Below, piece after piece: positions 1,966 to 10,700 of a DNA stretch of 64,000 bases. Position 1 is the first letter of the stretch; each line of letters starts with the position of its first letter. The stretch covers positions 434,001-498,000 of the forward strand of contig NW_027191466.1 in the NCBI RefSeq assembly GCF_011745625.1. Reading direction: 5' to 3'. Position numbers and translations under genes: made by a program. This stretch comes from Cladosporium halotolerans (lineage: Eukaryota). Below the pieces are notes generated by a model. That model was not told the DNA's origin and ran no database searches. It worked only from the letters and a program-made list of their open reading frames with translations.

Positions 1966-4424
1966 TTATACAGGCGTGGGTGTCGCCCTTGCCTTCGCCG
2001 CGTTCAGCAGCCTTTCCATTTTCTCCATTATCGAGATCCGTCGATCATCAAACGCCGGGTCCTTGTATATAGGAAATTTGAGCCCCTTTAGAATGTCTGC
2101 AATGCTCATCACTTGTGTTACCAGAGGCTCTGGATTCTCAACATCAGTAATTGAGTAATTTCTGCGTGAGTCAGCGACGACCGCCCAAGGATCGGCTCCG
2201 CATTCCAGGAACGTGCCGAAAACAACAGAGATTAAATCCTGTGAGGCGTCGAAGGATCCCAAGTGGACTGCATAATACATCCAGAAGATAAAGACTTGCC
2301 AAATGCTGTAGTGACACGGGCCGGGCCTTTCGATTGGCTTGTTGACGTCAATTCCGCTTTCAATGAGTCGGATAGATATATCGCGACACAAGTCTAGGCT
2401 TTCGGGGAAGTACTTTTGCACGTCAAAAAGGTCACAGAATATCTCATACCAATACAGTTCCAGACAGAGCTGCTTCTGCCCGATCGTGAGCGAAGCGATG
2501 TGTGCTTCTAGTAAATAGTGAATAAGACCGGTACAGTCATAAGACAGCAGATGAGATAGCAGAGTGCTATTCTGCAGAGCCGTCGTCGGCAAAGCCACAA
2601 GCTTGTATTTTCGAGACGCAATATTGGACTCAAGCTTTTCTGCAGCCCAGTGGTGCTGATCGATGCTCGAGATAGTGTTACCGAGGGCATCTGAATAAGA
2701 CACTGCTGATATCAGAGCGTCCTTCGAAGATATCCGTGGATACTTGAAGTCATTGTCAAAGACATCAAGCACGAGGCTTCCGAATTCAGTTACCCCAGGC
2801 GCGCAACTGAGAACTCTTAGGCGCAAGTTCCAGGCGGTCGATTCTTCACAGAAATGACTTCCTGCTAAATCAAGTAGTATGTCCTGTTCTGCTTTTACCC
2901 GGAAGAACTCATACGTCGTTCGGTGGCTGAAGGTCACAAAGTTATCACGACGCTCCCAGAGATCTTCTCGAACTGCGAATCGATCAAAAGGCGCTACAAA
3001 ATCTCTGCACCACTTGTTGACGCAAGTGATTGCATAGCTCTCGAGCCTCTGCATCTCGGAGAGGTTCTTTGGAGTCCACTGGTATGGAACTGAACCATTT
3101 CTCTCGACATCCTCCTCCAAGAAGGCAGTTTCCAGCAAAGAAGGTAACAAAGAATCGTGTAGCATCATTAGAATCAAGCGAGCCGTGTACACATGGTAAA
3201 TGGGCTCGATGCTGTCGAAGATGTGCTGGTAGAAATCTTGCAGCTCGGTTGGATACGCTTTGAATCTCTTTTGCAGCATCCCCACACCTGTCGCCTTCAT
3301 CGATGCCTCTTCTCAGGTCCTTGACAGCAAGCGTCACCCATAGAAAGACTCCTTCTGCTTTTTGGCGAATATATTGCCGGAATGTAGCTAGTTCGCTTCT
3401 TTGCAAATTTACGGCTCCTCGTCTTGGAGCATTGAGCGTATCAGTAATATAGACGTCGATGTCTTGCGACGTCAGCTCGTGGAGAGTAGATTGAGTGTTA
3501 GCATTCTTCATATATGCTGTCCTGAAGATGTTCCAAGGGCGACTCGAAACACAGATTTTGACGGCTGACGATGTGTTCAGAGCATCCAAAGCAGCGATGA
3601 GTTCATTGTGGTCTCCCTCCAACTCATCGAGTCCGTCGATCAGGAAACAAAATCGCGATTCGATCGAGACCTCTTTGAGAACCAAGCGGAAACCGTCGAG
3701 AAGCTCCTTCCTCGTCCAAGGTTTTGCCCTTCTCGATCGTTCCAAGCACTTCCATCTCACAGGGAACGTCGATGACACCAGCTCAGGGTGTTGTTGCAAG
3801 ATTTGATACAAAAGAGCCCGGAGAAGGCCTTCCTGTGACTTCTCCAGCTTGTCACTTCCCGCCTTCCAGAAAAAGAAGGCAGCCGTCAAGACTTCCTTGC
3901 CTGCCCATTTGCGCAAGCACCGCTGCGTCTGGTCATTTTCTAGGAGAAACTTCATAAAAGTCGACTTTCCCGAGCCTGCTTTGCCATGGATCCAAAATAT
4001 TTCTTCCGAAGTCTCCAGCTAGTACCTAAGTCGAGTCGCATACCCCTTGAGACGGTGGCATTCGCACACTTGAGAGTCATACCAGTCATTGAGCTTCGAG
4101 CAGCGATTGCAAAGGAGGCGTTTGGAGTGCTCGTCGAAAAGCCAGTCAAATGTGCCCGGGTGATTGTCCAGAGGACGGTCATGGTAGCGCTCCATGCCGT
4201 CAAAATACAAGCTGTCCAGGATAGTATCTGACGCCAGAAAATCCTCATCAGCACGTGTAGACTTGTTGTCGGAGCTAGATGGTGGCTCACAGACCTCTGC
4301 GGTTGAATTCACCTATGTGGACGTCTCCATAGACGTTGCCGTTTATCACTCGAGCTTGATCACGCACGACAGTTCCATGGTATTGGTTCCGCGACGAGTA
4401 GGTCCTCTCGAGTGGGGAATTCAT
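1966..4424 (-). pseudogene. Disrupted NACHT-domain NLR-like gene with an N-terminal HET-s-like amyloid motif
   Basis: ATG at 4424. Walker A FWIHGKAGSGKSTFMK, Walker B FLIDGLDE, CVSSRP and GVFLWV. Lesions: frameshift near 4312, in-frame TAG at 4021-4019 where Trp is expected, frameshift near 3288. Confidence 0.85.
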
Positions 4425-4753
4425 TGCGAAGATTATCCGATTGTAGGCAACCATGCGACGCTTCCATGGTATCTAGTAGGGCAGGGAGGACAAGGTTTAC
4501 AGACCGGGGCCGATAAAATCAAGCTGAAGGGCAAGGCTGAGAATCTCAGCGTGACGCATGAAGCCTAAGCGCCCAAGCTGTCTCAGGTGCTGTGATTTAG
4601 CGAGGTACTTTAAGGCATCTCTGCATGTCTTGGTGCGCCTTGCAATATTGTTCTCATATTTAGGGATGTTCTCTCTAGTATACAAGCTTGAGCCGCCGAA
4701 AAGCCGTCTGACGTCGGGTTGCAGTAAACCCATCGACTTGGATGTGCTTACAC

Positions 4754-5665
4754 TCAGCACACGTACGCAGCGTATGCTAGGAGAGATGCAGCCAGCAAGA
4801 TACCCGCACGACCCATGGAGGCAGACGGCGAGGCTGCTGAGTCGGAGTCACTACTTGCAGCTGTCGCGCTGGCACTTGCGCTTGTGCCTGAGCTAGAGGC
4901 GGTGCTACTCGGGCTGTCGTCTTCAGCTGAGTGTGCCTCAGTAGCCGCAACGAGCGTAGCCTCGTTACCGCTGTCGCCAACACAGTGCCTTGTCTATGTC
5001 AGTAAAGTTTCTCAGAAGTCATGGATGAACGACATACAGCTCGTCACCATCGTTGTGGCAGTCATTGAAGCTCTCGGGGGGATTGTTCTGGTCCCACTCC
5101 GAAGTCACTTCCCACTCATCGCTGCCGTCCAAGCAGTAGAGCTCAGTCTCGTCGTGGGCGTGACAGCTCGTTACTGCAGGCGGGTACGCCGAGGACGAGG
5201 ACGAAGAGGATGTAGTAGTTCCGTTCATGGCAGAGGAGCCAGTCGCAGCCGCCGCGGTCGCGGTGGCAGAAGTTGTTGAGTGGGACTCATCGTGGTCATG
5301 GCTGTCATCTTGCTCACCCTCATCCTCGGACGAAGCGAGTGCCAAAGTGGCATCGACCTCCCCTTCGACACAATGCCTGATTATTGTAAGCTCGAGCTTC
5401 AGCCAGATAGGTCAGGTGCAACTTACAGCTCCTCTCCATGGCCATGACAGTCTTCGAAATCGCTCGGAAGGGTCTCGGCAGTCATGCCAGATGAAACGAC
5501 CTCCCACTCGTCATCGCCATCGAAGCAGAAGAATTCGCCGGCTCCGTGCTCGTGGCAGCCGGTAACCTCAGCTGGAAGACTGGAAGCACTGCTGGTGGTA
5601 GAAGACGACTGTGCAATCGCAGAAGCCGCGAAGGCTGTGAGAGCAAGAAGCTGTGAGGAATGCAT
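4754..5665 (-). CDS. Secreted, probably GPI-anchored Ser/Thr-rich protein with four CHxH/CHxD-x4-5-C metal-binding motifs (ZrfC-type ZIP ectodomain-like)
   Basis: Exons 5665-5427, 5376-5038, 4988-4754. Signal peptide MHSSQLLALTAFAASAIA. Motifs CHEHGAGEFFC, CHGHGEELHC, CHAHDETELYC, CHNDGDELHC; His/acidic linker SHDHDESH; hydrophobic C-terminus AGILLAASLLAYAAYVC. Confidence 0.85.
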
Positions 5666-5793
5666 CGTTCGTGAAGCCAAGTAAAAACGAAAGTACACGA
5701 GCTGCCGTGCACGTGAGGGTTTGCGACAAGCGATCGAGCACCGGAAGAAGATTGGTGGCACACCAGCGACGGCCGCTCTATACACTCACCTTA

Positions 5794-5808
5794 TCCATCA
5801 AGGTCATT
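5794..5808 (+). promoter_or_regulatory. ZafA/Zap1-type zinc-response element
   Basis: TCCATCAAGGTCATT with CAAGGT core, ~130 bp upstream of the CHxH-protein ATG. Confidence 0.6.
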
Positions 5809-6004
5809 CAGCAAGCGGGCTCTTTCTCGCAGGGAAAACTTGACCAGGCGCTTGGCTGATGCTTGTTCTAAACGCCATTGAAGCCATGCTCCTAGTTTCA
5901 GCAAGTTGCAATCTCGTGAATGGTGAGCCAAGAAAGATAGCGTTCTGCACAAGAAGCGAAGGAACCCAACGTAGTAAATACGGATGGGTGCCAAGAGTAA
6001 GTGA

Positions 6005-6019
6005 AACTACCTTGATGGT
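6005..6019 (-). promoter_or_regulatory. ZafA/Zap1-type zinc-response element
   Basis: Minus strand ACCATCAAGGTAGTT. Plus strand ACCTTGATGGT is one mismatch from the yeast ZRE ACCTTNAAGGT. Shares CCATCAAGGT with the 5794 site in inverted orientation. Confidence 0.6.
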
Positions 6020-6610
6020 TCTTTCGGCCAACACCTTCCGGGCTTTGATCGATGCAAAAAAGGATAATGCCATGAAACATGCGGTTCTGTAGGTTGCAAG
6101 ATCGAGGGTATGATCGGCTTGCGGCGCGAGGTACGCTCCATGGGGCACGTCAAGCTTTGCGCAGGCCAAATATGACTGTCCAGTATGTCGAGCACCTCGT
6201 TTGCACCCTCTCTTCTGAGGCCAAGCACAATTGAAAATACGCGGAAGACTGTATCTTCCGCATGAGAGTGTGTAATTAGTAATTGACATGCGAATACAGG
6301 CTTCGCATAGCTCGGAGACTTCTTATACAGTATACAGAGCAGTATAAGGTAGCTGCTCAGCAGCTCGGACACTTTCGAGCACCGCGTACGAAGCCCCGGA
6401 AACAATGCAACCACGGAGTGATCCACGAACGGGGCTCTAGGCGAAATCGTCCGACGAAAACAATATTTAAAAAGTCGATTAGAATCTGCTCAGGGAACAG
6501 GAGAAGTTGTTACATTGTTAGTAGGACACAGCCGGTTGCTTTACCTCTTCGAAACCCACCCGTTCAACCGTCGCATGCTCCATCCTATTGTTGCGAGCGT
6601 GAAAATCACC

Positions 6611-7658
6611 ATGACCACCTCTCCCAAAATCTACGATGCCCTCATCATCGGTTCCGGCCCAGCCGGTCTCTCCGTAGCCCTCGGCCTCGCTCGCCAACTC
6701 TACACCGCCGTCGTGTTCGACTCGCAGCAATACCGCAACCACCCAGCGGACCGCATGCACAATGTCATCACCTGGGACCACCAACCACCGGAGAAGTTCA
6801 GGGCCAGCGCGCGACAAAATATTTCCGACCGCTACAAACTGATCGAGTTCCGTCAGGCGCGCGTCGAGACGATTCGGCAGCTCGATGACGGCACGTTCGA
6901 GGCGATTGACGGGCAGCAGAGCAGGACGATAGGAAAGAAAGTTGTACTGGCGACTGGGGTTACTGATCTCGTTCCGGCGATTGAAGGATTCAGTACTCTA
7001 TGGGGGAAGTCTATGTTCGTGATTCATCGCTCCCATCTCTCTATCCGTCTACTGACAACGTTTAGATTCCACTGCCTGTTCTGCCACGGCTACGAAGAAG
7101 CCGGCGGCCAATCTGCTGGGATCTTTGCTTCTGGGATGCTCACTGATCCTAACATGGCGTTGCACATGGCGGGGATGGCTGCGTCACTGGCGAAAGATGT
7201 GGTCCTCTATGCAAATGGCGACGCGAGCGTCGCAGAACGAATGAAAACTGCCAGCGAAGGCAAGCGCGTGACTGTCGAGCCCAGGAAGATCGTAGCGATC
7301 GAGCGCAAAGAGACAGAGCGTACGGACGTGCTCGTGCATTTCGGAGATGGCGAGGCGAGAGAGGAGACCTTTCTGGTGAGTACTCGCGCCAGCAACCGCT
7401 TGAAATGTTGCTGACCATGAGCGATAGGTTGCGGTTCCACCGGCGGAGGTTAATGGTCCATTTGTGGAGCAGCTGGGGCTAGAGATCACTGAGCAGGGGT
7501 TCATCAAGACCATTTCGCCTTTCTACGCCACGAATGTGCCAGGCGTGTTCGCAATCGGTGATTGCGCGACGCCGTTCAAGGCGGTACCACAGGCCATCGC
7601 GATGGGAACATTTGCTGCCGGTGGAATTGCGGGCCAACTGGGCCAGCAAAAGTTGTAG
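6611..7658 (+). CDS. Thioredoxin reductase-like FAD oxidoreductase, GliT-like
   Basis: Exons 6611-7014, 7066-7375, 7428-7658. [24 protein letters not shown] redox motif, [11 protein letters not shown]. Confidence 0.88.
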
Positions 7659-7714: not shown

Positions 7715-10700
7715 TCATTTGATCTTGAACTCCGTCCACGAATCCGCGCGCGAGGCTTTCTCCAATCGAGCCCATTTGCCACTCATTATACTCGGAACGA
7801 CGGCTTCTCCAACGAGTGTGTGGAACCAAGGCTCGCCCGGGATCTCTCTGAGAATGAACGGCCGGCTGGCGCTCAAAGGCACGACGATCTTATCGCCGAC
7901 TTCCAGACACGCCGGACCCAATCCCAAAAATCCCGATCTCGTTTTGAAGAAGTCTCTCTCCCGGCTCTTAGCATTGTACTCGTGAAACTCAATATCGATA
8001 TCGCCCGCCTCGAATTGAGTGGGCAGCTTTTGGACCTCGGCGATGTTTGAGCACCCGAGGACGTCCTTGCGCATTGGGGCGTCGAAGTTCGTTTTGTTGA
8101 GGTAGAAGCGGCCGTGGGTGCCACGAGCGTACGCGAACAGGTTACCGAGCTCGCGGGCAACTTCGAAGTCATCCTCAATCGTTTTCCTGTGATCCGATTT
8201 GTTGCGGTTTTTGAAAGCTGGCTTTAGCCTTTCGGGCACGAAACGCTTCTTGTCTCTGAAGCGGGAGACTTTGACGTTCCAGCGATTTTCTACGTATGTA
8301 GCATCTAGGCTGACATCGATAGAAGAGAGCTTGCCTTCTTTGAAGACGTACTCTAGGTCCTCTTTCCGCTGGTGTTCATAGGACATGACTGTGTCCCTTT
8401 TTGAAGGTTTGATCCTTTCCTCCAGCTCTAAGATGTGACTTCGACGGCCTTCAAGAAGATAGTCGAGCAGCAGTAGACCAAGCCGCGGATTCGAGTCCAG
8501 ATCGTGCTTCGTCCGTTTCTCGCTCTCATACAGCTTTTCGAAGTCGTATTCTAACTCTTCGAGAATCCAGTCGATAATTTCACCTCTAATTCCTCGACTG
8601 TTGTAGATGAGACAGCCGCCGGGAGATTGTTCAAATTCGGGAACATTTTTGCCCATTGTGCGCTTTTCGATGACGTCGAAGTACCAGGCACGGCAATGCA
8701 TTGTCCGCGGTATGTCGTGTTTGAATCCGTCCTGGGTAGAAGTGTGACTGGCTCCGCTACTCAGCTCGACGTAAGGCATTGTCGGTGGTTTGTCGTTGAG
8801 AAGACCGGCGTTGTATTTCAGCCTCTCTGGGGTGTCTTGTTTCTCCCCGGCCGCATCGAGTATGTTTCCTGTCTTCTTGCGCGAATTGATTACGTTTCCT
8901 GTCTTAAGCAGGCAAGTGAGATCCGGAATCCAGGTGGGAATGATACCTTCAATCCGATCTCTGCCCCAAACCGACCGTGTGATGCGCTGATCGATCAGCA
9001 CGTCGACGGTGGAGGATTCCTTGATGAGGTAGAGAACAGCTTCTTCAAAGACTCTGATGACGCTATGATGATAGTCCGGCGGCATAGCAGCACCAGCGGT
9101 GGACGCCATACCCAACAATGCAAAGATGCGGTCTCTTGGGTCAGTAGAATTGAAGGCTCCGGCGAGTACGAGCAGCTCGTGAAGGGACTTGGGCGCGTTA
9201 TGCCCGAGTTGTTGGAATGTTGTGAGCGGATGATTGGCGGCCCCAAACAGGTCATAAAAGTGGTCCCATGTCACAGCATGTCTCCCGATATAGACATATG
9301 GTTTATTGGCCGAGAAATGGTACTCCTGTATGCACCAAAGTCTCCGCCACCAAACCTCAGACTTGCCTTTTGAGTCGCTCTGAAGTCGAAGCCGCTGAAG
9401 GTGATTTCGTAGTTCCTCGGCAGCATTTTCGTGCTCAGTCTCTGCCAGGCCTGGAAGCATGCAGAGCGTAAGTCCGATGTCCTCGTCGATGTCCTCGTCA
9501 TCTTGAAAGGCCCGCGAACATGTGCGCTTGCCAGGATGAAAGTCGACGATCCAGATGATGGTCCTCAGTGCCTTGGCATAAATGTGGCGCATCAAGAGCA
9601 ACTGATGGTTACGCTCGTCGACGTCTTGCTGATTGATACATATCACGTCGACCCAAACGAAACGATCTTGCGTGGTCATTCGGAGGCGTTTCAAGGCACG
9701 CCACAAATGTTCCGAAACATAACAATTTCTGAGATCCCCGTCAGGTATCTCGCGAATGGCCTCCTCCGTGCCCCAGCAGTACGACAAAGCTTCATACTTG
9801 GGCGGCGCGTTGAGGCTGTGATAGTGCAGGAAGCAGCTAAGTGGGGCGTCTTGTTCGCCTTGTGCAATTCGCAGAATACGGAACTCGTCCTCAGTCACTG
9901 AGAGTTTCCGATAGAACTGTGAAGAAGACGCAGAAATCGCGCGCGGCCTGGCTGCAGGGCCGCCGACGCGCGTGTAGTCAAGTGCTTGGTGACTAGGATG
10001 CACTGGAGCATCTGGGGCATCCAAGGACATGTCCAGTGATGACTCATCTCCGGAATCAGAATCACTGCACTGCTCAGAAGGGGTCATTTCTTTGAATGAT
10101 TGTGGATTGGTGGGCGGCGTTTCCGATACTGACGCTGTTCGCGCGACTGGAGCCGTTGATATCGATGCTGGTGGTGATAGCGAGCATGCTGTGGTCGGTG
10201 TGGCTGAGAATGGAGAATACGGCATTGCGATCGGACTTGCTGTCACGTCTCGTAAGAAGTCATCTCTCACTGTAAGGTGTCAGCAATGCTCGGCAGTGGA
10301 AAAAAAAGGAGAGAAAACAATCGTACCTTGGGATTCGCTGAACGTGATTGTAACCTTGTGCCATTCTTGGGTAAAGCTTGGCGGTACTGTGAATTGCTCC
10401 AATGGATTTGCCACGGGCGGACTGGATCGATTGGACCGAATGGACATGAGCCAGGATGACGAACTCCGTCGAAGTGGTGCTGGTTCTTCGCTGGAGGATG
10501 ACCTTTTTTTGTCGGCCTTCTTCACCTCGGCTTTGACTTCCTTATATTTGACTCTATCCCATTTCATCCAGGATGCTGTAATCTCTACATGCTTGATTTT
10601 CCAATGAGAAGCAGGACCGGGGCCTTTGAGGGTGATTGGAATGGTCACAGAAGTCTCTGCGCTTGACTCCCATAATTTAATCCATTGCCTCTTTTGTTTG

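Follow-up and report, generated by a model that had tools for sequence, protein, structure and literature searches.

A stand-alone relative of the ZIP-transporter ectodomain in Cladosporium halotolerans, a candidate zinc catcher of the fungal cell surface

Can the extracellular part of a zinc importer exist as a surface protein in its own right, detached from the transporter? A locus of Cladosporium halotolerans raises this question. The ability to scavenge zinc at neutral to alkaline pH is known to contribute to the fitness and virulence of fungi, and the current model combines a secreted zincophore (Pra1/Aspf2) with a ZIP importer that works fully only with its long ectodomain. The locus lies in a stretch of 64,000 nucleotides (NCBI RefSeq assembly GCF_011745625.1, contig NW_027191466.1, positions 434,001 to 498,000), which we analysed as a whole and call the window, counting positions from its first letter. 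An earlier note, made from the letters alone, had proposed that positions 4754 to 5665 encode a glycosylphosphatidylinositol (GPI)-anchored protein that resembles a ZIP ectodomain and lacks a transporter domain. We find that the two modules of this protein are homologues of the repeats in the N-terminal ectodomain of ZrfC/Zrt1-type ZIP importers and that the gene stands alone, being part of neither a transporter nor a longer gene. Judged by sequence, the protein is probably an uncharacterised cell-surface zinc catcher.

Modules of ZIP importers in a stand-alone gene

Neither the exons nor the full-length protein has a match in our local copy of Pfam, and exon 1 gave no match when longer proteins were searched with a word index. 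An exhaustive phmmer search with the same exon among 1.84 billion representatives returned 66 proteins at E ≤ 1e-3, 62 of which contain at least one C-H-x-H..C motif. Four matches without the motif (P0012, P0026, P0046 and P0065), repeat or bacterial multidomain proteins, were taken as low-complexity noise. Pfam Zip was found in 10 of the 23 longer matches that were scanned, above the cutoff in nine, P0041 being truncated. In these Zip-positive proteins one to three copies of the module precede the Zip domain, and most of them also carry a membrane-proximal CHFHAGVEHC. They include the ‘high-affinity Zn(2+) transporter zrt1’ of Meyerozyma and proteins of Stachybotrys, Scedosporium, Gaeumannomyces, Hortaea and Aspergillus nomiae; four C-H-x-H..C motifs are present in the Aspergillus protein, consistent with the ‘four putative zinc-binding motifs’ described for ZrfC (excerpts of PMC9785309 and PMC4343018).

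Because circularity had to be avoided, we built a profile hidden Markov model (HMM) from 23 modules of 12 Zip-positive proteins only. It scored 91.9 bits against the spliced protein, compared with 9.7 bits for the best of 2,000 shuffles, and recognised two domains, at aa 32–86 (50.4 bits) and aa 146–203 (51.7 bits), which cover positions 2–55 and 2–59 of its 61 positions. A structural neighbour of aa 31–92 in the ESM Atlas belongs to a ‘Zinc-regulated transporter 1’ cluster, with a template-modelling (TM) score of 0.75 over 61 aa; this match lies outside the neighbour’s Zip domain, and both sides are predicted models. The likeness to ZIP ectodomains that had been suspected from the letters is thus borne out by profile, database matches and predicted structure.

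Gene structure adds a further trace of kinship. The two introns of the C. halotolerans gene sit at equivalent module positions (..EL/HC), each interrupting a Leu codon ahead of His-Cys. An open reading frame 80% identical to the Hortaea ZIP protein stops at ..CHWHDTEL, where the spliced protein continues with HC; this Dothideomycete ZIP gene thus probably has an intron at the same point. In module 1 of orthologous loci the second half-motif reads CHFHAGVLHC (L002 4200–4310, L007 3700–3810), CHFHTGVLHC (L003 860–1000, L009 1–130) or CHYHAGVLHC (L008 1–120). Since CHFHAGVLHC is so close to the transporters’ CHFHAGVEHC, we regard the two motif types as homologous.

No transporter goes with the modules. 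When six Zip transporters were compared with the 64-kb window by tblastn, matches fell only at 5022–5578 and involved only their N-terminal parts. Likewise, no match to a ZIP membrane domain was found in nine orthologous metagenome loci, several of which hold 1–3 kb of downstream sequence, so the claim of an ectodomain without a transporter stands. Four full-length orthologue models of 273–290 aa share the architecture and the tail of the protein described here, with a longer His/Asp linker.

Stand-alone relatives occur in two groups of fungi. Among yeasts they include Spathaspora SPAPADRAFT_68819, Candidozyma pseudohaemuli C7M61_001780, Millerozyma Piso0_002883 and proteins of further assemblies; among Dothideomycetes they are found in four Cercospora species, Septoria linicola and Cladosporium fusiforme. 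They share a signal peptide and a similar tail. In the C. fusiforme protein (P0139, Q7P37_005932, 471 aa) the orthologous part begins at about residue 207 with a signal peptide of its own, so the annotation seems to have joined it to a gene upstream. For a yeast assembly in ENA, a two-module stand-alone protein and a ZIP protein of the ZRT1 type (P0025 and P0084) are each recorded with a longest contig of 267,788 nt, and the two may therefore lie on one contig.

How often the form arose was approached with a maximum-likelihood tree of 47 modules over 61 columns, rooted at the midpoint, from which fragments and the CHFHAGVEHC hybrid modules were left out. All 14 Dothideomycete stand-alone modules fall into one clade with the Hortaea ZIP module (support 98/98), and all 14 yeast stand-alone modules are intermixed with 13 yeast ZIP modules (support 96/94). 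By this pattern, the stand-alone form seems to have originated independently at least twice, in yeasts and in Dothideomycetes, unless gene conversion with the transporter gene is ongoing. We hold the reading of separate origins loosely because the columns are few and the root is a midpoint root only. A broader proposal is that fungi have repeatedly split off the ZIP ectodomain as a GPI surface protein, at least once in the CUG-clade yeasts and once in the Dothideomycetes, and have kept it under the same ZafA/Zap1 and PacC/Rim101 programme as a third component of zinc scavenging; it is tentative, and we lean slightly against it. Our literature search found no fungal paper on the stand-alone form, and subscription journals or supplements may hold one.

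Gene, protein and predicted fold

The window from 5665 to 4754 is a genuine, expressed three-exon gene, on which three independent lines of evidence agree. The whole coding region (4754..5665, minus strand, like every feature of the gene and protein given in this section) comprises three exons and two introns, stop codon included, and yields a product of 270 aa. Exon 1 (5427..5665) opens with the ATG at 5665 and encodes the signal peptide, an S/T stretch and most of module 1; exon 2 (5038..5376) encodes the end of module 1, the His/Asp linker, an S/T stalk and most of module 2; and exon 3 (4754..4988) encodes the end of module 2, an S/A/T/D stalk and the GPI-type signal before the stop TGA at 4754–4756. 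Intron 1 (5377..5426, 50 nt, GTAAGT..CAG) and intron 2 (4989..5037, 49 nt, GTATGT..AAG), both of phase 2, are absent from two metatranscriptome contigs assembled from RNA-Seq in different studies, X7 (975 nt) and X12 (968 nt), which omit exactly 49 and 50 nt. The omitted segments end CT..AC on the plus strand, which is GT..AG on the strand of the gene.

These RNA contigs map to 4623/4638..5684/5693 and neither extends into a neighbouring gene; together they give a minimum transcript span of 4623..5693 on the minus strand, their ends not being transcript ends. They cover this gene only, and so speak against its being a piece of a longer gene, one of the outcomes that the earlier note had named as refuting its proposal. 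Contigs X1 and X2, from DNA or uncertain runs, represent the unspliced locus and are uninformative on expression. The spliced product agrees at 270 of 270 residues with P0134, the NCBI entry ‘hypothetical protein WHR41_05527 [Cladosporium halotolerans]’, and the exon order and intron places are kept in nine related metagenome loci. Contigs X1, X7 and X12 carry an in-frame insertion of 12 nt (four codons) behind position 4865, in the S/A-rich stalk, which is stalk-length variation among close strains or species.

The signal peptide, modules, linker, stalks and GPI-like tail that had been read from the letters are all present in the translated gene. The signal peptide (aa 1–18, nt 5612–5665), judged by eye, has a hydrophobic core at aa 6–18 (Kyte-Doolittle up to 1.58) and ends in AIA before Q. 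Module 1 (aa 32–92, 5340..5572, spanning intron 1) reads CHEHGAGEFFC..DEWEV..CHGHGEELHC and then adds a final strand. It is followed by the His/Asp linker (aa 96–112, nt 5280–5330), with DDSHDHDESH, and by the S/T stalk in exon 2 (aa 113–145). Module 2 (aa 146–206, 4949..5180, spanning intron 2) reads CHAHDETELYC..DEWEV..CHNDGDELHC and leads into the S/A/T/D stalk in exon 3 (aa 207–248). The C-terminus, with the putative GPI-type signal (aa 249–270, nt 4757–4822), reads S248-A-S250, MGRAG and 15 hydrophobic residues to C270, which, judged by eye, resembles the usual order of small omega residues, a short polar spacer and a hydrophobic stretch up to the last residue. This layout is kept in the orthologues and in the yeast and Cercospora homologues, and the AlphaFold2 model of the protein has a helix in the tail at residues 256–269. 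Its features thus indicate a 270-aa protein that is probably secreted and GPI-anchored.

The two modules (aa 31–92 and 145–206) are identical at 30 of 61 aligned residues (49%), and their alignment score of 157 compares with −10 ± 10.5 (maximum 40) in 2,000 shuffles. Each has four spaced Cys (37/47/73/82 and 151/161/186/195), and three of the half-motifs begin CHEH, CHGH and CHAH, the fourth being CHND; in the module alignments the Cys and the first CHxH are invariant. His residues stand at positions 2, 38, 40, 74, 76, 81, 106, 108, 112, 152, 154, 187, 194 and 212. The mature part contains 48 D+E, 0 K+R, 13 His, 8 Cys and 68 S+T, and the sole Arg of the protein, R253, lies in the tail.

AlphaFold2 predicts six strands for each module, with a predicted local distance difference test (pLDDT) value of 84–90 in module 1 and 84–95 in module 2; a yeast stand-alone homologue likewise has modules of six beta strands (pLDDT 84–95), and in both models the linker and stalks are disordered. 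The model places CHxH on one strand of a hairpin and the partner Cys on the next. From this strand assignment, the two His would face one side and the Cys pair can staple the hairpin, so that each module is predicted to consist of two disulfide-stapled beta-hairpins with an HxH pair on one strand apiece. The second hairpin follows CHxHxxxxHC, a pattern that also describes CHFHAGVEHC of the transporters and CHTHxxGxxHC of Pra1. Solved structures offered little to compare: a PDB sequence search with exon 1 gave a best E of only 0.6–0.84, Foldseek against solved structures a best E of 0.01 at TM 0.1, and VIA-align best Z scores of 3.9 and 4.0, to PmrD and to transposase beta-barrel domains. Such weak results show neither a new fold nor a function.

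The neighbours of the gene encode an alcohol dehydrogenase, a NACHT NLR protein, a Pyr_redox_2 oxidoreductase, a HET-domain protein and an MFS transporter. The NACHT/NPHP3_N NLR-type gene (1966–4018, minus strand) lies directly downstream and is syntenic in six orthologous loci, with 49–64% identity. The HET-domain gene is at 7715–10279; NLR-type and HET-domain genes are both typical of filamentous ascomycetes. Upstream, a divergent Pyr_redox_2 reading frame (thioredoxin-reductase-like, 6575–7414, plus strand) shares a common 909-nt intergenic region with our gene, and this frame was not found upstream of the orthologues.

Promoter, proposed function and alternatives

The zinc-response (ZR) consensus of ZafA is DYYVYCARGGTVYYY, with an essential CARGGT core (PMC6070888), and that of PacC is GCCARG (excerpts of PMC3618310). 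A proximal ZafA-type motif, TCCATCAAGGTCATT, lies at 5794..5808 on the plus strand, 139 nt upstream of the ATG and reverse to the gene, with one mismatch to the consensus and the core intact; a distal one, ACCATCAAGGTAGTT, lies at 6005..6019 on the minus strand, 349 nt upstream of the ATG and in gene orientation, with at most one mismatch and again an intact core. The whole window holds five such sites (at most one mismatch, core intact), two of which are these, 210 nt apart in the 909-nt upstream region. PacC-type sites GCCAAG are found at 5851..5856 (minus strand, −191), 5927..5932 (plus strand, −267) and 5990..5995 (plus strand, −330), and five GCCAAG sites fall within the 550 nt from 5676 to 6225, against a window mean of 1.67 per kb.

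For the window and seven orthologous loci (exon 1 identity 53–66%), we aligned the 400 nt that precede the ATG. Mean column identity was 58%, and the runs of at least six invariant columns were the two ZR motifs, the three GCCAAG sites and a block, TCCTTCGCT. The proximal ZR motif is kept as ACCTTGATGGA in eight of eight promoters, at −120 to −145; the distal one is kept as CCATCAAGGT in seven of eight, L002 having TAAGGT; and each of the three GCCAAG sites is kept in all eight. The invariant block (5955..5963, minus strand; nine bases, 8/8 promoters) lies between two GCCAAG sites and is neither a ZafA nor a PacC motif. Orthologous loci retain the downstream NLR gene but not the upstream neighbour, so the motifs belong to this gene. 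The conserved ZafA-type and PacC-type sites are a new finding and, as sequence motifs, would match the zinc-plus-alkaline-pH control of zrfC and aspf2: zrfC/aspf2 are under ZafA and PacC, and ZRT1/PRA1 under Zap1 and Rim101 (excerpts of PMC3386192 and PMC9175090). They strengthen the case for a putative role in zinc binding or uptake.

We therefore put forward, at about even confidence, that the protein is a GPI-tethered zinc binder, induced by zinc starvation and alkaline pH, that concentrates Zn2+ at the surface and passes it to ZIP importers. We infer that the GPI anchor is attached, that the disulfides form, that the protein binds zinc and hands it over, and that the gene is in fact regulated in this way. 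A strongly acidic, O-glycosylatable secreted protein would be held by its GPI anchor at the plasma membrane or cell wall and would display there two small all-beta modules descended from the ZrfC/Zrt1-type ectodomain repeat. When zinc is scarce and the pH neutral to alkaline, a ZafA/Zap1-type activator and PacC would turn the gene on; the His (and Asp/Glu) clusters would bind, and so concentrate, Zn2+ at the cell surface; and the zinc would be handed to ZIP importers bearing the same modules. The protein may additionally dock an Aspf2/Pra1-type zincophore. Chemistry and genetics of the known systems give these steps a background: in peptide studies the CHTHADGEVHC region of Pra1 binds Zn via four His, the Zrt1 N-terminus binds it via His156/161/168 and Cys162, and the passage of zinc from Pra1 to Zrt1 is favoured (excerpts of PMC9175090); ZrfC without its N-terminus makes a smaller contribution to virulence (excerpts of PMC4343018).

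Several observations weigh against this proposal. Neither a ZIP gene (in the 64-kb window) nor a Pra1/Aspf2-like gene (among ten large reading frames scanned at 1–14 kb) lies nearby, and the named stand-alone homologues are all labelled ‘hypothetical’ or ‘uncharacterized’. The candidate metal ligands themselves are uneven: in CHNDGDELHC of module 2 one His is replaced by Asp, and in the single-module homologues of Cercospora and Septoria the His of the second hairpin is gone and the Cys kept, so the His are not uniformly constrained. The Cys are probably disulfide-bonded in the oxidising secretory pathway, which would leave only His, Asp and Glu to bind metal. With no clear likeness among solved structures, the fold does not point to a function, and the RNA contigs attest expression as such, not tied to a condition. 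On the regulatory side, the ZafA consensus was defined in Aspergillus, and we assume that it also holds for Cladosporium. Motifs were counted only once the sites had been seen, which makes conservation the stronger evidence, and the bare hexamers are not enriched window-wide (CARGGT 62 against 59 expected, GCCARG 107 against 93), so that only their clustering and conservation upstream of the gene carry weight.

Could the protein be a dock and not a catcher? It might capture no free zinc and instead serve as a zincophore co-receptor, a surface landing site that mimics the transporter ectodomain for a secreted Aspf2/Pra1-type protein; loaded zincophore would then be recaptured more readily, or the protein and the transporter would compete for it. 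Both the homology of the modules to that ectodomain and promoter motifs as expected for a zincophore locus would fit, and there are precedents: in C. albicans, soluble Pra1 returns to the cell only if the ZIP transporter that bears this N-terminal domain is present (excerpts of PMC3386192), and peptide work indicates that the C-terminus of Pra1 gives up Zn to the N-terminus of Zrt1 (excerpts of PMC9175090). However, in those same excerpts the part of the transporter ectodomain that binds Pra1 is not established, and the scan of ten reading frames described above brought up no partner zincophore; we consider a dock unlikely. The His losses raise a different possibility, namely a structural or adhesive GPI wall mannoprotein whose modules are a stable scaffold and whose His are relics of its origin. 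Invariant Cys beside His that are lost from the second hairpin in Cercospora and Septoria, and one in module 2, are what such a scaffold would predict; S/T stalks and a GPI tail are typical of wall proteins, and the feature neighbours in the Atlas include generic wall glycoproteins. Yet every alignment shows the CHxH of the first hairpin unchanged or almost unchanged, orthologues keep or lengthen the His/Asp linker, and the conserved ZafA-type promoter sites would be left without explanation, which makes a role apart from metals rather improbable.

The acidic, His-bearing mature part, free of basic residues, and the longer His/Asp linker of the orthologues would also suit a surface buffer or shield, in which the protein binds Zn2+, Cu2+ or other cations in the wall for protection against excess metal or for storage and not for uptake, as might befit a halotolerant, stress-tolerant fungus. 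Pra1 binds copper besides zinc (excerpts of PMC9175090), and ZafA represses some genes too (PMC6070888). But the relatives of the modules are parts of importers that work when zinc is scarce, genes with ZafA-type sites are mostly induced (77.1% of the analysed group were up-regulated; PMC6070888), and the paired PacC-type sites fit an alkaline, low-zinc programme, so we regard buffering as quite improbable. Zinc capture for uptake is the reading that we favour.

Relation to known zinc systems

By the features tested, the protein belongs to the family of ZIP-ectodomain modules, and it is not a ZIP transporter, a Pra1/Aspf2 protein or a Pht protein. With the ectodomains of ZrfC (A. fumigatus) and Zrt1, also called Zrt101 (C. 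albicans), it shares the order CHxH..C, about 25 residues, CHxH..C, an end-to-end profile match, the predicted beta fold and promoter motifs that fit the ZafA and PacC control reported for zrfC. Unlike those transporters it has no ZIP membrane domain (PF02535), ending instead in a GPI-type C-terminus, and has long S/T stalks; lacking the membrane domain, it cannot transport and can only bind, present or dock.

Pra1/Aspf2 would be similar in role, Pra1 being an extracellular fungal zinc scavenger under zinc and pH control, and a detail of sequence is shared as well: the C-terminal CHTHxxGxxHC of Pra1 is patterned like CHGHGEELHC here. The earlier remark that the folds differ nevertheless holds. 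Pra1 is a deuterolysin-like helical protein with HRxxH and a His triad that forms a hexamer (PMC12663325), whereas the protein here is all-beta in its model, without HRxxH and without a Pfam match; and Pra1 is released from the cell, whereas this protein is probably tethered to it.

Two candidates bear on the view that the type is uncharacterised, which the labels of its named homologues uphold and to which both are possible precedents. The A. fumigatus gene gzbA (AFUA_8G02450) encodes a putative GPI cell-wall protein of unknown function and is a direct ZafA target, up 84.8-fold in zinc limitation and down 275-fold in a zafA deletion mutant (PMC6070888). Its ZR motifs, at R −165..−151 and D −401..−387 (PMC6070888, supplementary Table S5), have the same layout as here, reverse proximal and direct distal (R −139, D −349). 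By contrast, the gzbA promoter is divergent and shared with a co-regulated neighbour, and the upstream neighbour of our gene is not conserved. GzbA, compared by description, expression and ZR layout only, may be a relative; beyond PMC6070888 our search found no relevant literature on gzbA or its locus tag. The other candidate is His-triad_hairpin (PF28209), a family of Pfam 38.1 that is present in Ascomycota clusters named ‘GPI anchored protein’; these clusters are feature neighbours of our protein in the Atlas (0.91–0.92; at most 165 of 256 features shared). The family may cover the module, the sole link being this feature similarity of the whole protein; an Atlas feature search with module 1 alone gave no usable match.

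Outside the fungi, the surface-exposed His-motif repeats of streptococcal Pht proteins bind Zn2+ and pass it to AdcAII (excerpts of PMC3842936), and the protein described here may work similarly, as a surface His-motif zinc binder; its Atlas neighbours noted above carry a family whose name, His-triad_hairpin, points the same way. This is an analogy: the kingdom and the anchor type differ, structure searches gave no fold match, and the protein has neither HxxHxH nor a PF04270 match at E ≤ 10. A second analogy, this time of event, comes from vertebrates, in which PrP descends from the ectodomain of a LIV-1 ZIP protein, is GPI-anchored and is tied to zinc uptake (excerpts of PMC2745754, PMC3783104 and PMC4206978). 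There, as may be the case here, a ZIP ectodomain became a separate GPI-anchored surface protein, although the ectodomain folds are unrelated and the prion family has another origin.

If the proposal is true, a tethered copy of the ectodomain under the same regulators adds a layer of surface capture or docking to fungal zinc scavenging, in plant-associated Dothideomycetes (Cladosporium, Cercospora and Septoria) and in yeasts of the Candida haemulonii, Meyerozyma and Spathaspora groups. Such a copy would also supply a small, soluble, transporter-free module on which the chemistry and structure of the ZrfC/Zrt1 ectodomain can be tested, which is hard on a membrane protein, and its promoter layout lets ZafA and PacC control be tested outside the Eurotiales. 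Should the reading of repeated origins be true as well, these proteins would be a functional counterpart of the Pht proteins and an evolutionary parallel to the descent of PrP from a ZIP ectodomain.

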